Shown here: in pieces, positions 38,352-44,734 of the stretch
How the letters are laid out: each line of letters opens with the position of its first letter
Position numbering within the stretch: position 1 is the first letter of the stretch
Assembly (NCBI GenBank): GCA_024276125.1
Contig: JAJRXT010000085.1
Location: forward strand, 20,580 to 84,579
DNA: 64,000 nucleotides
Reading direction: 5' to 3'
Source: a bacterium
GTDB taxonomy: Bacteria > SZUA-182 > SZUA-191 > JAJRXT01
Translations under genes and position numbers: made by a program
The notes under the pieces: generated by a model
Database searches by the model: none
Told to the model about the DNA's origin: nothing
What the model saw: only the letters and a program-made list of their open reading frames with translations

Positions 38352-39170
38352 TTATTGATAAGGACATCCGCCATTACATTTAAAGGTGTAATCCAGCCCG
38401 TGGCGGGCAATAAGACTGTGCTTGGATATGAAATTTTCTCTGGAGGCATCCTCTGTAACTCTTCCTTGTTCCAAGACAATAAAACGCTCACATAACTGAA
38501 ACAAAAGTAATAGATCATGACTTACGATTATTTTGGTAGTCTTAATAGCGGAGACCAACTCCATAAATAAACGTTCATTGCGAGGGTCCAAATTACTAGT
38601 CGGCTCATCCAATACCAGTATTTGTGGCTGCATGGATAAAACCGTAGCCAGCGCCACGCGTTTGCGTTGACCGAATGATAAATGATGAGCCGGACGATTC
38701 TTAAGACCGGAAAGTCCTACATCTTTTAATGTCCGCTCTACCCGCGTTTTGACCGCCTCATTATCCCACCCCATGTTCATCAGACCAAAAGCAACATCAT
38801 CATATACAGTAGGACAAAAAAGCTGATCATCAGGATGCTGAAACACCATACCCACCAAGCGGCGAATCTTTTTTATATTGAGAGCATTTATGGCCAAGCC
38901 GCCGATGCTTATTTCACCTGTTCCTCGTAAAATACCGTTTAAGTGTTTAATCAGGGTTGATTTACCGGCGCCGTTATGACCTACAATTGCTACTGATTCT
39001 CCCTCATAAACAGTTAGGTTTAATCCCTGTAGAGCGGCAGTGCCGTCGGGGTAATTATAATATAAATTGTTTATCTCCACCGCTGCTTTTTTAAGCTGCG
39101 GCTTGGGCTGCTGCGAGTATTCATAATGCTCATCTTCTTTGATGGCCGTATTAAATTGATGCGGAGGCAT
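38352..39170 (-). CDS. cbiO: ECF/ABC transporter ATPase, CbiO/NikO-like
   Basis: GHNGAGKST Walker A, VGMVFQHPDDQLF.PTV.DDVAFG, HHLSFGQRKRVALA, LVLDEPTSNLDP. Confidence 0.85.
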   Translation of the reverse strand: MPPHQFNTAIKEDEHYEYSQQPKPQLKKAAVEINNLYYNYPDGTAALQGLNLTVYEGESVAIVGHNGAGKSTLIKHLNGILRGTGEISIGGLAINALNIKKIRRLVGMVFQHPDDQLFCPTVYDDVAFGLMNMGWDNEAVKTRVERTLKDVGLSGLKNRPAHHLSFGQRKRVALATVLSMQPQILVLDEPTSNLDPRNERLFMELVSAIKTTKIIVSHDLLLLFQLCERFIVLEQGRVTEDASRENFISKHSLIARHGLDYTFKCNGGCPYQ

Positions 39171-39178
39171 GGCTTTAA

Positions 39179-41776
39179 TTATTCCTTACTGGTAATTGGT
39201 ATCTGAGATTTTCCATTTTTATATCTAAGCAGCCGGCTGGAATTTAAAATTACCCCGATGCTGTTTAAAATATGCAATATCCCGCCGGTAAGCGGAGAGA
39301 TTATCCCGCCTGCTCCCAATGTAATCCCGACAGCATTCATAGCCATGGAATAGGTATAATTTTGTTTAATAATAGCCATCGTATGCAGGCTCAGCCGCCG
39401 CAGGCTCAATATATCTTCTAAATTATCCCTGCTTAAGGAAATATCGGCGGTCTCAACCGCCAGTTCCGAGCCGCCTGCTCCCATGGCTATACCTAAACGC
39501 GATTGAGACAGAGCCAGGGCGTCGTTTACTCCGTCTCCAACCATAGCAACCTCAGCGCCCGCCTTACTCAGCTTATCAATTAAAGCAGCCTTTTCCTCCG
39601 GCAGCATTTCATAATAATACTCATCCAGATCAAGCATTCTGCTTACAGCCTGCGCCGAACGCTTATTATCGCCGGTAATTAAGACTATCTTTTTTATACC
39701 CGTTTCTCTTAACTGCCGGATAGTCTCTTTGGCCTCAGGCCTTAAATTGTCCCTTATACCAATTGCGCCAATAAGTTGTGTATCTTTAGCTACATATACA
39801 ACAGTTTCGCCTCTATCCATTAACTCGGAAATCTCTCCATTCAGCTTTTCCACATCTATATCTATCTCTGTCATCAGACGGTGGCTGCCTACGGCAATAG
39901 TTACGCAGTCTTCCATAACTGCCAGAATACCTTTTCCAGTACGCATTTCACAAGACTTATGCTCAGGCGTAGCAACTCCAAGTTTTTCCGCATGCGCCAT
40001 AATGGCTAGACCAAGGGGATGTTTATAGTGCATCTCAGCGCAAGCAGCCAGCGCCAGTACATCTTCAACAGATGCAGTATCCGTGCGGTTAATTACCGTC
40101 TCTACAGTAGGTTTGCCGGCTGTAAGCGTGCCAGTTTTATCCAGACATAGGGTATCGATACGGCTTGCTTCCTCTAAATATCGTCCGCCTTTAACCAGAA
40201 TATTATTTCTGGCGGCATTGCCAATCGCTGCGCTTACCGCAGTGGGGGTGGCAATAGCGGCGGCACATGGACAGGCTGTTACTAATACCGTCATGGCGCG
40301 GTAAAAATCTCTGGTAACTACATATACCCCAATAGAAAAAATAAAGGCAAATGGTACAAATTTAGCGGCAAACTGATCGGCTATACTTTCAATCGGGGCT
40401 CTGGTTTCCAAAGACTCTTCCACCAGATGTATCACCCGCGCAAGATATGTGTCATCGCCTACTTTGGCCGCCTTTACTTGAAGATATCCCTCTTCCAGCA
40501 CAGTACCGGCATACACCGTATCTTCAGCTTTTTTGTATACCGGGATTGATTCGCCGGTAATAGAAGCCTGATTTACCGAACCCTCGCCGGATACAATCTC
40601 ACCGTCTACAGATATTTTCTCGCCGGTATGAATACAAACAACAGCATCTATAGGAACCTGATCCAATGGTATTCTGACTTCCACATCGTCAACCAGCATC
40701 CAAGCCTCATCCTCGCCTAACTGAATCAACTCATGAATAGCGCGTCTTGATTTATCCGCAGTATACTCTTCTAAAAGAGTTCCGCAGTTCATAAGCCAGA
40801 TAACCTCTAGGGCGGTAAGCCCCTCGCCCATAACAATGGACATAATAGCCGCCATGCTTACCAGAAAATCCAGGCTGAGCTTTTTGTGCTCAATCATATA
40901 GGTTATGCCTTCCTTAAATACCGGTATACCGGCGACTAAAGCAGTAACTGAAGCCATTTTATTTACTACCGGCAAGGAAAACGGACCGCGTTTGAATATA
41001 ACTTTTACCAAGGATACGGCCAAAATAACCCCGGTAGCGACTATACCTAAAAACGGTAAGGCTAAGTCAGATTCCTGATTGTCCTTTTTAGGGCAGCATA
41101 TTATGTTGTTGTTGTTTTTTATTGCTTTAGCCGATTGTACTTTAGACAGGGTGGCGATAATTTCTTCAGGGGTAATTTGTTTTTGGTCATAAAAGACCAA
41201 TGCCGAACCGGTAATAATGTTGGTAGTTAAGGATTTGATATTTTTATGATTTTCAGCTTCCCGTTCAAAAGCCTGCGCAATAAGGGGTCTTCTTTTTAAT
41301 GAATTAATATAAAACCTGACTCTTCCCGGCAAAAGATGACCAATTGTGTAATCTATCAGTTTTACCTGAGCAGTCTTTTCTTGGGCTGTATTTTGTGCAT
41401 TATCTTCTGAAGTCTTTTTTTCTGATATGTTGTCAGTTGATGCGGCTTCTTCTTCTGTCTTGTTGTTTGGCGTTGAGACTTTATTTTTTTGCATACTGGT
41501 TTTTTTTTCTTTTATCAGGGTTACGGGTGGATTTTTATCAGGCTTGCTGTTTTTCTTAGCATAAGCCATAATTTTACAGATAGGCGGGCGGGCATTAGGA
41601 GCTATTTCTACCAGATCGAGCTTTGCCTTACGGGCTAATTCCAGGGCTTTATCCAGAGGAACCACATTTAGATTTTCACCCGAAGCATTAATCAGGCGTA
41701 CTTTTTTTTGCTTGATCTCTTTATTTATTTTGGGCGGTTCTTTGGAATTAAAAGATTTTTTTTTAATATTTATCAC
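39179..41776 (-). CDS. Heavy-metal P1B-type ATPase with N-terminal IF3-N-like domain and H..PGRVR HMA-like domain
   Basis: TGES, ACPC, DKTGTLT, HP, GDGVND motifs; last TM ILHILNSIGVILNS; GTG start overlaps the upstream TGA. Confidence 0.92.
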   Translation of the reverse strand: MINIKKKSFNSKEPPKINKEIKQKKVRLINASGENLNVVPLDKALELARKAKLDLVEIAPNARPPICKIMAYAKKNSKPDKNPPVTLIKEKKTSMQKNKVSTPNNKTEEEAASTDNISEKKTSEDNAQNTAQEKTAQVKLIDYTIGHLLPGRVRFYINSLKRRPLIAQAFEREAENHKNIKSLTTNIITGSALVFYDQKQITPEEIIATLSKVQSAKAIKNNNNIICCPKKDNQESDLALPFLGIVATGVILAVSLVKVIFKRGPFSLPVVNKMASVTALVAGIPVFKEGITYMIEHKKLSLDFLVSMAAIMSIVMGEGLTALEVIWLMNCGTLLEEYTADKSRRAIHELIQLGEDEAWMLVDDVEVRIPLDQVPIDAVVCIHTGEKISVDGEIVSGEGSVNQASITGESIPVYKKAEDTVYAGTVLEEGYLQVKAAKVGDDTYLARVIHLVEESLETRAPIESIADQFAAKFVPFAFIFSIGVYVVTRDFYRAMTVLVTACPCAAAIATPTAVSAAIGNAARNNILVKGGRYLEEASRIDTLCLDKTGTLTAGKPTVETVINRTDTASVEDVLALAACAEMHYKHPLGLAIMAHAEKLGVATPEHKSCEMRTGKGILAVMEDCVTIAVGSHRLMTEIDIDVEKLNGEISELMDRGETVVYVAKDTQLIGAIGIRDNLRPEAKETIRQLRETGIKKIVLITGDNKRSAQAVSRMLDLDEYYYEMLPEEKAALIDKLSKAGAEVAMVGDGVNDALALSQSRLGIAMGAGGSELAVETADISLSRDNLEDILSLRRLSLHTMAIIKQNYTYSMAMNAVGITLGAGGIISPLTGGILHILNSIGVILNSSRLLRYKNGKSQIPITSKE

Positions 41777-42075
41777 CTTCCCTGGATAGTCTCTCTGGCT
41801 TTATATGCTTCGATAAGTTCTTCCAAATGTTCTTTTTGTTTAATAATTTCCTGTAATGATACCTTGTTGTTATTATCAAAGCTTAATCTTTTTGCCAGCG
41901 AAGGATTATCTTTTAACATAGCCAGAATAAACTGTACAGAAGATGCTCCCAAGAGAAAATTTATCGCCGGCCCCCCTTTAGAATGGGTAAAATAGCCGAA
42001 AACAGCCCCTTTGGCAGCATGAATAAACTGATAGAACATGTTATCCCAAACGGAATTACGAAAACCTAACAGCAT
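41773..42075 (-). CDS. Small FezA/DUF5132-like membrane-associated protein
   Basis: GPAINFLLGAS hydrophobic segment, C-terminal QKEHLEELIEA; TAATG overlap with the upstream gene. Confidence 0.65.
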   Translation of the reverse strand: MLLGFRNSVWDNMFYQFIHAAKGAVFGYFTHSKGGPAINFLLGASSVQFILAMLKDNPSLAKRLSFDNNNKVSLQEIIKQKEHLEELIEAYKARETIQGR

Positions 42076-44225: not shown

Positions 44226-44353
44226 CAAAAAAAGACTGCGAAAACTTCACCTTATCAAAGCACAAACGCTTTTATAGAGTTTCCGTAAGTCTGATATACG
44301 CAAAAATAAATTTTCAAGGCGGCTTCATACCTACCTATAATTTACTTATTATA

Positions 44354-44382
44354 AAGTTACCAGACTAGTGATTATTTGTCAA
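44354..44382 (-). promoter_or_regulatory. Putative sigma70 promoter
   Basis: Minus strand TTGACA-17 bp-TAACTT with an extended TG; adjacent near-palindrome TCAAATAATTATTTAA (44384-44399). Confidence 0.55.
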
Positions 44383-44539
44383 CTCAAATAATTATTTAAA
44401 TCATTTTAAGGGCTATTATAAGGCCAGTTTAAAAACACGGCACATGAAGGTAACACCTTTTGACAGCTAAAGAGCAAAGACATAATTTAACCACAGGGAA
44501 TACGATGATACACAGAATTTACCTTGTTTTTTTTCAAAA

Positions 44540-44734
44540 CTACTTTTTATGCAGGATAATTTTATGGTCAGATAAAGTAATTTCCTTGATATCAGCCTCT
44601 ATCACTTTTTGTTCTCCGGTAGTGCTACATATATAGCACTTACCGTTTTTAGGAAGAATTACATCTACTTTTCTCAATAATAACTCTTCACTACCATTAC
44701 TATACAAGTAAACATTAGGTACGCATAAACTCAT
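44540..44734 (-). CDS. cooT: CooT-family nickel-binding protein
   Basis: N-terminal Cys, NVY....EELL...VD.I, GEQKVI.A.IK.I.L.DHKIIL; AGGAG RBS. Confidence 0.8.
   Translation of the reverse strand: MSLCVPNVYLYSNGSEELLLRKVDVILPKNGKCYICSTTGEQKVIEADIKEITLSDHKIILHKK

Follow-up and report, generated by a model that had tools for sequence, protein, structure and literature searches.

A conserved operon predicted to couple a distinct CoBaHMA-domain P1B-type ATPase to DUF5132-type and Fez-like single-pass proteins

Here, we report a cluster of nine genes on the minus strand of a 64,000-nucleotide (nt) stretch of a bacterial genome (contig JAJRXT010000085.1 of assembly GCA_024276125.1, positions 20,580 to 84,579), further referred to as the window. 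Sequence comparison indicates that the core of this cluster is a conserved operon coupling a distinct P1B-type ATPase with a CoBaHMA domain (further, the pump) to single-pass membrane proteins, one of the DUF5132 type and two resembling the small proteins of ferrosome (fez) gene clusters. We assign the pump to an unnamed third branch of the P1B-ATPase systems with a CoBaHMA ("R-rich") domain, which shares a superclade with FezB and with the CtpC-PacL systems. The locus very probably belongs to this superclade of pumps accompanied by scaffold proteins, and it may point to a new metal-handling compartment, related to yet distinct from the ferrosome and the mycobacterial effluxosome.

The original prediction, made from the DNA letters alone, described a variant ferrosome-like system. 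The superclade, the small proteins, and the gene order agree with it; at the same time, the pump falls into a clade of its own rather than with FezB, and the observations fit an efflux platform about as well. The sequence elements on which the prediction was built are all present. The nine open reading frames (ORFs) span 44734 to 38352 at the positions claimed; a TAATG overlap joins the genes of the 74- and 100-amino-acid (aa) proteins, and a GTGA overlap joins the latter gene and that of the pump; the pump contains ACPC, H-I-L-N-S, and H..PGRVR, and the small proteins end in acidic KE..E[DE]L tails. The conserved operon core extends from about 43604 to 38352 and comprises the following genes and domains.

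43389..43604, minus strand: HTH_17/excisionase-type DNA-binding protein, 71 aa, with a helix-turn-helix (HTH) domain (PF12728, E 9e-17; TIGR01764, 6e-14)
42651..43040, minus strand: small soluble protein, 129 aa, with a predicted SRPBCC/Bet v1-like fold (sub-threshold PHA_gran_rgn match; AlphaFold2 and Foldseek)
42338..42571, minus strand: S1, single-pass protein, 77 aa, putative divergent DUF5132 member (profile-profile comparison)
42075..42299, minus strand: S2a, small hydrophobic protein, 74 aa (ORF; GGAGGA precedes the GTG start)
41773..42075, minus strand: S2b, tandem paralogue of S2a, 100 aa (DNA repeat D2, alignment)
39179..41776, minus strand: P1B ATPase (pump), 865 aa (Pfam, NCBIfam, alignment, tree)
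41552..41728, minus strand: IF3 N-terminal domain, pump residues 17-75 (PF05198, E 3.9e-23, 81.8 bits against a cut-off of 26.9)
41135..41344, minus strand: CoBaHMA/HMA_2 "R-rich" domain, pump residues 145-214 (PF19991, E 6.7e-13)
38352..39170, minus strand: CbiO/EcfA-type ATP-binding cassette (ABC) ATPase, 272 aa (PF00005)

Phylogenetic position and signature motifs of the pump

According to Pfam, the pump consists of an IF3_N domain (residues 17-75), a linker rich in Lys, Asn, and Glu, an HMA_2 domain (residues 145-214, with the motif HLLPGRVRF), and the E1-E2 ATPase and HAD domains; no other HMA_2 domain is encoded in its genome. The HMA_2 profile corresponds to the CoBaHMA domain, described as having a conserved His plus basic residues (bioRxiv 10.1101/2024.07.07.602159, a preprint on Microcystis), and an "R-rich motif" has been reported for Fez proteins and CtpC (Grant & Komeili, bioRxiv 10.1101/2020.01.10.902569). 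The stretch H..PGRVR fits both descriptions, and we infer that HMA_2, CoBaHMA, and R-rich are names of one domain. The N-terminal R-rich (RxR) motif is common to related pumps and hence is not diagnostic of FezB.

In the alignment, transmembrane helix 4 (TM4) of the pump carries TACPCAA, and the last helix (TM6) carries LHILNS. The pump and all 14 of its relatives from the same clade (clade A, see below) share TACPCAA in TM4 combined with H[VI]xNS in TM6. Neither of the FezB signatures, D[Y/F]SCA in TM4 and HNxxT in TM6 (Grant & Komeili, bioRxiv 10.1101/2020.01.10.902569), is present, as the original prediction had suspected. The FezB-type loci used for comparison in this study, typed by motif alone (DYSCG, HNxxT, and three R-rich neighbours), carry DYSCG or DFSCG in TM4. 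Such loci (L103 and L138-L151, from the class of genome G028) comprise five genes, encoding two R-rich proteins, a DYSCG/HNxxT pump, an R-rich protein of 250 aa, and a GxxxG protein of 90-100 aa; the DYSCG/HNxxT pump was observed in 34 of the 61 genomes of that class.

The closest relatives of the pump are approximately 50% identical to it, have lengths of 689-760 aa, and originate nearly all from metagenomes; several of them have been named "cation-transporting P-type ATPase C" by the Joint Genome Institute (JGI). NCBIfam yields generic heavy-metal and Cd-family subfamily matches for the pump. A tree was constructed by a quick IQ-TREE search (LG+C20 model; Shimodaira-Hasegawa-like approximate likelihood ratio test, SH-aLRT) for 67 P1B ATPases, namely P0002-P0043, 13 sequences picked from P0044-P0120, and 15 pumps from the analyzed loci, with the fragments P0035, P0038, P0043, and L136 dropped. 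The HMA_2/R-rich pumps all fall into a single clade (SH-aLRT 100), to which the PF00403-type relatives of ZntA and CadA do not belong. Thus, the phylogeny, which the original prediction had proposed as a check, sets the pump not among ZntA/CadA exporters but inside a 100%-supported clade with FezB-type and CtpC-type pumps.

The R-rich clade holds four lineages, which form a polytomy. Clade A contains the window pump and 14 relatives (support 96) and is joined by P0036 and P0037 (99). The FezB type (DYSCG/DFSCG, HNxxT) groups with pumps of a DYGTG type (83). The CtpC clade (99) includes a Mycobacteriaceae pump with an adjoining PacL gene, and the last lineage is a CPC/HNAST group (100). Several rows of the alignment are long-branched, and composition warnings were issued. 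Given this placement, the pump is neither an ordinary exporter nor FezB nor CtpC. The DYGTG type, sister to the FezB type in the tree, was found in the same class as the window genome (loci L104-L107, genomes G009-G012); this R-rich P1B type has DYGTG, without Cys, in TM4 and ISNGSA in TM6. It adjoins a bona fide DUF5132 protein in L104 and L107 and a stand-alone HMA_2-type (H..PGR.R) protein in L106 and L107.

The first 75 residues of the ATPase ORF, absent from the original prediction, comprise the IF3 N-terminal domain. The ORF starts at a GTG overlapping the stop codon of the 100-aa gene, and the full domain is encoded in frame. It is 55% identical to the N-domain of the genome's own infC, which is complete and adjoins thrS. 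The clade relatives begin at about the position of M95 of the pump in the alignment, and no good ribosome-binding site is visible in the DNA ahead of M95. PF05198 occurs in none of the 119 other relatives listed; a search with residues 1-140 among proteins of 475-1514 aa returned the query only, being word-indexed, so that distant cases could escape it. The predicted fusion of IF3_N with a pump is the only case found in these searches.

Small proteins, gene order, and accessory genes

Each of the three small proteins has one hydrophobic stretch followed by an acidic tail, ending in KETFEDLKAEA in S1, KEHLEDLIEEA in S2a, and KEHLEELIEAY in S2b. The architecture of S1 is a hydrophobic helix, an RP motif, and an acidic helix. 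Its match to DUF5132 (PF17195; 15.9 bits, E 0.014) is below the Pfam gathering score of 25, and S2a and S2b have no family match. Profile comparison is more telling: the S1 family profile and that of nine DUF5132 members (36-45 bits) align over 78 columns with an hhalign probability of 98.4% (E 7e-15; controls at most 0.7%). A HMMER scan of 1.84 billion representatives with S1 retrieved seven relatives at E<=1e-3. On these grounds, we consider S1 to be a divergent DUF5132 protein. DUF5132 itself has no match in the window's own genome at E<=0.01; bona fide members were found in 5 of 20 genomes of the same class, the five falling in one family, and at five of the nine DUF5132 loci in that class an H..PGR.R (R-rich) protein adjoins.

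The S2 profile, built from S2a, S2b, and two orthologues, matches six small proteins of the FezB-type loci with a probability of 89.9% (E 1.7e-6; range 87-90%), and S2a and S2b are probably distant relatives of the Fez-type small proteins, judging by these profiles. Reversed and column-shuffled templates, used as hhalign controls, gave at most 1% and scores of at most 14.4, while every real pair scored at least 17.9. The S1 and S2 families match at 85.9% if a Fez-locus protein is included in the S2 set and at 39.5% if it is not. There is no hhalign support for the pairs of S1 and Fez small proteins (12-17%), S2 and DUF5132 (4-6.5%), or DUF5132 and DUF1490 (1.8%). Thus, similarity to DUF5132 and to the Fez small proteins, which the original prediction had suggested looking for, was found with controls.

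The S2a and S2b genes are tandem duplicates, linked by the 58-nt DNA repeat D2 with 71% identity. A GxxxG motif is present in S2b (GAVFG) and in the S2 orthologues from two related loci, L110 and L111. A word-indexed homologue search with the 74-aa protein returned only itself. The predicted complex of S1 with pump residues 141-865 had a score of 0.13 and was not counted either way.

Conservation of the gene order was assessed by a metagenome scan with a clade-specific 45-residue profile, which yielded 16 loci. L110-L113 belong to clade A; L114, L118, L119, and L121 encode VFCPCAF-type pumps without small genes (L115-L117, L120, and L122-L125 lay outside the comparison). A scan of genome contigs returned at least 600 matches, mostly generic P1B pumps, and among 80 of these loci taken further only L023 (CtpC type) was useful. 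Searches of 40 relatives and of 19 further genomes from the phylum did not recover clade A, and its distribution is therefore patchy.

Loci L110 (GC content 0.62) and L111 (0.47) have the same order of genes, encoding a protein with HMA_2 plus transmembrane segments, HTH_17, a homologue of the 129-aa protein, S1, S2, an HMA_2 protein, and the pump. The HTH protein, S1, S2, and the pump are thus co-linear in loci with GC contents of 0.41, 0.47, and 0.62. As the same order recurs in two unrelated metagenome loci, the arrangement exceeds chance, and the cluster conservation that the original prediction had proposed to check is observed. The position of the stand-alone HMA_2 protein of the relatives is occupied by S2b in the window. 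In tblastn searches, seven of the nine window proteins match at least one of L110-L113. Orthologues of the HTH protein (49-54% identity, at the same position), of S2a (44-48%), and of S1 are present in both L110 and L111. The 129-aa protein matches L110 only, and weakly (20% identity, E 0.001); its counterpart in L111 is backed by the position, a PHA_gran_rgn match of 23.8 bits, and the alignment. No match in L110-L113 was found for the 100-aa S2b and the 54-aa His-rich peptide. A CbiO-like ATPase directly follows the pump in L111 (47% identity), and a more distant ABC ATPase is located upstream in L110 (26%).

Short metagenome contigs L112 and L113 contain a truncated pump fragment of clade A, which covers residues about 327-407 and ends in a stop; at a distance of 6-40 nt, the opposite strand carries a truncated CooT-like ORF. 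These look like decayed copies of the cluster, and it is only here that CooT has tblastn matches, with none in L110 and L111. The flanks of L111 encode a TonB-dependent receptor, two DUF4198 proteins, and an OprB porin; those of L110 encode a TonB receptor, ExbD, and ZnuA. Iron genes (Feo, Fur) were not encountered in the loci read.

Among the accessory genes of the core, the HTH_17 protein is a conserved member and a candidate regulator; kinship with MamR was considered and rejected (29.7 bits against a cut-off of 100). The 129-aa protein had been described in the original prediction as similar to the polyhydroxyalkanoate granule-region family. A match to this family (PF09650, PHA_gran_rgn) exists, at 20.9 bits for the window protein and 23.8 bits for the L111 orthologue, and remains below the gathering score of 26.6; an Atlas lead for this identity scored 0.83 only. 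The AlphaFold2 model, based on an alignment of three sequences only, has a helix-grip fold (predicted local distance difference test score 71, predicted template modeling score 0.62). Its Foldseek matches are PYR/PYL, norcoclaurine synthase, and TTHA0849 (TM-scores 0.55-0.61), hence the predicted SRPBCC-like fold. Our guess from this model is that the protein may bind a lipid or another ligand. Its translation probably starts from an ATG located about 30 nt past the TTG.

The best NCBIfam models for the ABC ATPase are cobalt or energy-coupling factor (ECF) ATPases, all below their cut-offs (PRK13636, 225 bits against 463; TIGR04521, 223 against 330; TIGR01166, 196.7 against 211.8). The cluster encodes no CbiM, CbiN, or CbiQ, leaving the ATPase without a membrane partner there. 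Its paralogue with 65% identity on contig C68 (C68:42-1559) is directly followed by a gene for CbiM, which starts with MHIPDG and ends in a His-rich tail. A CbiM-CbiQ pair on C75 (L154:67-2235) and a lone CbiQ/EcfT beside truA on C37 (L153:1402-2175) have no ATPase within 1.4-1.5 kb; parts of ECF-type Ni/Co importers are thus scattered over contigs C68, C75, and C37. The CbiM-linked paralogue and the CbiM/CbiQ loci devoid of an ATPase allow one to classify the cluster ATPase as CbiO-type, and it could therefore serve a Ni/Co importer encoded elsewhere.

The periphery of the cluster contains the following features.

44540..44734, minus strand: CooT-family small protein, 64 aa (PF10133, E 1.5e-15, 57.7 bits against a cut-off of 27)
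44169..44225, minus strand: terminator-like hairpin with 25-nt arms followed by a T run (inverted repeat I3, sequence reading)
43922..44086, minus strand: 54-aa peptide with a His-rich tail, HHHEHLHDKKHEH (ORF; Kyte-Doolittle hydropathy window 2.06, residues 12-28)
43825..43892, no strand: copy of a REP-like (repetitive extragenic palindromic) element, outside the system (direct repeat D1)
38076..38143, no strand: second copy of the REP-like element, downstream of the operon (repeat search)

Shine-Dalgarno sites were seen in the DNA ahead of the CooT gene (AGGAG, 8 nt from the ATG), the His-rich gene (AGGAGG, 7 nt from the ATG), and the 74-aa gene. CooT is a peripheral member and, like the His-rich gene, seems to form a transcription unit of its own. 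The Ni ligand of CooT is Cys2; in the window protein, Cys is at residue 4 (M-S-L-C), and there is no in-frame alternative start. The 54-aa peptide has no Pfam or NCBIfam match and is a candidate membrane-anchored metal-binding peptide. The original prediction took its gene to be leader-controlled. No confirmation of this was obtained: scanning the region with Rfam gave no riboswitch or leader family, with two chance-level miRNA matches only, and the sole structure upstream is the terminator-like hairpin at 44169-44225.

The genes flanking the cluster are unrelated: those on one side encode a hexapeptide transferase and glycosyltransferases (PMT_2 and family 2, GT2), those on the other an aminotransferase and BatA/VWA proteins. 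The latter BatA/VWA/DUF58-type genes (minus strand, 31742-36221; Pfam "Aerotolerance regulator N-terminal" and von Willebrand factor type A) lie a few kb downstream of the cluster, past the aminotransferase gene. The REP-like repeats are copies of a double-hairpin element of approximately 100 nt that also resembles miniature inverted-repeat transposable elements (MITEs); further copies are located at about 23351-23445 and 31379-31478. In the 3-Mb genome, 71 matches to a 101-nt query were counted, some being two strands of one site. Two copies bracket the core; the idea that they are borders of a mobile element was rejected, the element being common genome-wide. On the plus strand, three consecutive giant ORFs of 2752 aa (5' end open), 1995 aa, and 855 aa occupy 3-16707.

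Storage, efflux, and the transported metal

In the proposed mechanism, the pump would be driven by ATP and carry a divalent transition metal from the cytosol across a membrane. S1, of the DUF5132 type, and S2a and S2b, of the Fez-small-protein type, would share this membrane, their acidic C-terminal helices pointing into the cytosol, and would cluster or stabilize the pump. An accessory role would be left to the HTH protein, the SRPBCC-like protein, and the CbiO-type ATPase. Were this membrane that of an internal vesicle, the metal would be sequestered in a ferrosome-like store. This storage-organelle reading is tentative, somewhat short of an even chance. It is nevertheless slightly favoured over an efflux platform, because of the fez-like multi-gene architecture and the neighbourhood of uptake genes. 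Indeed, stand-alone R-rich proteins combined with small hydrophobic proteins are characteristic of fez clusters and of the five-gene FezB-type loci, not of two-gene pacL-ctpC pairs, and the related loci lie among genes for uptake (TonB receptors, ExbD, two DUF4198 proteins, OprB, and ZnuA). Likewise, fez clusters sit with iron-uptake genes (Grant & Komeili, bioRxiv 10.1101/2020.01.10.902569).

Several observations weigh against storage, and many of them suit a platform of the PacL/CtpC kind, in which the pump would reside in the cytoplasmic membrane and export excess metal or supply periplasmic proteins. S1, S2a, and S2b would then be PacL-like scaffolds or chaperones, with the 54-aa His-rich peptide or His-tailed variants of S1 as metal-binding modules. 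No sequence feature tells an internal vesicle from the cytoplasmic membrane. Organelles have been demonstrated for FezB-type pumps only, and the pump lacks both FezB motifs; it shares CPC in TM4 with CtpC, an exporter. S1 has the architecture of PacL, a transmembrane helix followed by a Glu/Ala-rich helix and an optional His tail, since two of its relatives (P0124 and P0127) end in His-rich tails similar to the PacL metal-binding motif. The L111 orthologue of S1 has a weak match to DUF1490 (E 0.0017, 18.8 bits, below the cut-off of 28.4), and many relatives of the pump bear the JGI name of ATPase C. CtpC has been called "P1B6-like," and PacL-like proteins have been linked to P1B6 pumps (Boudehen et al. 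2022, PMC9374683). Further points against storage are that the window's genome has no stand-alone HMA_2 protein, that a strict GxxxG motif is absent from S1 and S2a, that the links of the small proteins other than that of S1 with DUF5132 are moderate (S2 with Fez proteins 87-90%, S1 with S2 39.5-85.9%), that only two full related loci were read, and that the tree is a quick search with four sub-clades in a polytomy.

On the other hand, S1 matches DUF1490/PacL (three sequences) at hhalign probabilities of 6.6-12%, no DUF1490 (PF07371) was found in the genome at E<=10, and S1 resembles PacL in architecture alone. HN is not conserved in TM6 (H-I-L-N), and clade A lies outside the actinobacterial CtpC clade. 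Moreover, the cluster counts 7-9 genes, its relatives have R-rich proteins, and their neighbours are uptake rather than efflux genes. The efflux platform is in our estimate likewise short of an even chance, slightly less probable than storage.

Two other explanations account for less. A membrane system for some other mineral or ion, such as Ca carbonate or phosphate inclusions, could be suggested by analogy with the genes adjacent to ccyA in Microcystis, where DUF5132 and HMA_2/CoBaHMA proteins flank ccyA, and one DUF5132 gene and a DUF454/CoBaHMA gene co-vary with it in expression (bioRxiv 10.1101/2024.07.07.602159); R-rich neighbours at five of the nine DUF5132 loci in the class of the window genome agree with this analogy. 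We regard it as highly unlikely, given that a CPC-type P1B pump indicates soft transition metals, not Ca, that the cluster contains no ccyA-like or Ca-transport gene, and that the relatives are flanked by metal-uptake genes. A trivial explanation, an ordinary ZntA/CadA-type detoxification pump next to unrelated small ORFs in a chance neighbourhood, would agree with the generic heavy-metal and Cd-family NCBIfam matches, with the common REP-like elements flanking the region, and with the seeming separateness of CooT and the His-rich gene. It is largely refuted, and hardly any weight is left to it: the tree sets the pump apart from the ZntA/CadA relatives, the HTH protein, S1, S2, and the pump are co-linear over the range of GC contents with the 129-aa counterpart at the same position, and the TAATG and GTGA overlaps couple the genes translationally.

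The best guess for the transported metal is Ni or Co, a choice held with low confidence; Zn/Mn is a somewhat more doubtful candidate, Fe is unlikely, and any other metal still more so. Hints of Ni/Co, proposed in the original prediction as possible instead of Fe, come from CooT, from the CbiO-type ATPase, whose paralogue is linked to CbiM, and from L111, where DUF4198 and TonB receptor genes are found; DUF4198 is linked to Co/Ni uptake. Conversely, Zn/Mn is suggested by ZnuA in L110, and scanning the region with Rfam revealed no NiCo riboswitch, NikR not having been searched for. Besides, the terminator-like hairpin parts CooT from the operon, CooT is missing from L110 and L111, and the transmembrane signature of the pump is unlike that of SPC-type Co pumps. 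A more elaborate scheme, in which clade-A pumps would build a lipid-bounded Ni/Co store fed by ECF import via the operon's CbiO-type ATPase and served by CooT, with the fused IF3 N-domain tying the platform to the translation-initiation machinery, is improbable.

No description of clade A, its accessory set, or the IF3_N-pump fusion was found in the literature searched, with no search aimed at IF3 fusions; members may be listed in the supplementary tables of Grant & Komeili and Boudehen et al. Ferrosomes and effluxosomes are two recently described ways of organizing P1B pumps with tiny scaffold proteins, and their literatures are barely connected. The putative third branch has its own transmembrane metal-site signature (TACPCAA / H[VI]xNS) and its own accessory genes (HTH_17, SRPBCC-like, CbiO-type ATPase), and its DUF5132-type partner ties it to the CoBaHMA/DUF5132 pairs beside a biomineralization gene. 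If it forms granules, metal-storage organelles are not limited to iron; should it form efflux platforms, then scaffolding of the PacL kind is much broader in occurrence and diversity than one would judge from DUF1490. In both cases, the operon is compact (5 kb) and testable in a laboratory host.

Comparison with known systems

The fez clusters encode the P1B-6 ATPase FezB, the small GxxxG proteins FezA/E/G, and R-rich proteins of the FezC/D type (Grant & Komeili, bioRxiv 10.1101/2020.01.10.902569). The window cluster resembles them in the R-rich/CoBaHMA domain at the N-terminus of a pump from the same superclade, in the multi-gene operon, and in the tails of the small proteins (KEHLEDLI), which match a small protein of the FezB-type loci (EMKEHIEDLIAEK). 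In addition, the relatives L110 and L111 carry stand-alone R-rich proteins and sit among metal-uptake genes. The differences are the pump motifs, TACPCAA instead of D[Y/F]SCA and H[VI]xNS instead of HNxxT; the placement in a clade (96) separate from that of the FezB and DYGTG types (83); the extra conserved HTH_17, SRPBCC-like, and CbiO-type proteins; the lack of stand-alone R-rich proteins in the window genome; and the occurrence of a strict GxxxG motif in S2b only.

Like the window cluster, the PacL1-CtpC effluxosome of mycobacteria (PMC9374683; review PMC13460109) combines CPC in TM4 and an R-rich N-domain with a small partner that crosses the membrane once, contains a Glu/Ala-rich helix, and is encoded immediately upstream with translational linkage; His-rich tails are present in some S1 relatives. 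CtpC is defined by CPC in TM4 and a conserved HN in TM6, and pacL-ctpC is a two-gene pair (Boudehen et al. 2022, PMC9374683). In the window, by contrast, the partner is of the DUF5132 rather than the DUF1490 type, HN in TM6 is replaced by H-I/V with N two residues later, the host is not an actinobacterium, and three small proteins and four further genes are observed instead of a pair.

ECF-type Ni/Co importers (CbiMNQO/NikMNQO) use CbiO as the ATPase, and their CbiM has an N-terminal Met-His site. The ABC ATPase of the cluster is of the CbiO type and has a 65% identical paralogue in an operon with CbiM starting with MHIPDG; the cluster differs from these importers in the lack of CbiM, CbiN, and CbiQ, and its ATPase misses all curated equivalog cut-offs. 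Finally, the Microcystis ccyA locus (bioRxiv 10.1101/2024.07.07.602159) likewise pairs a DUF5132-type single-pass protein with a CoBaHMA-domain protein, whereas it contains no P1B ATPase and is tied to Ca carbonate inclusions.

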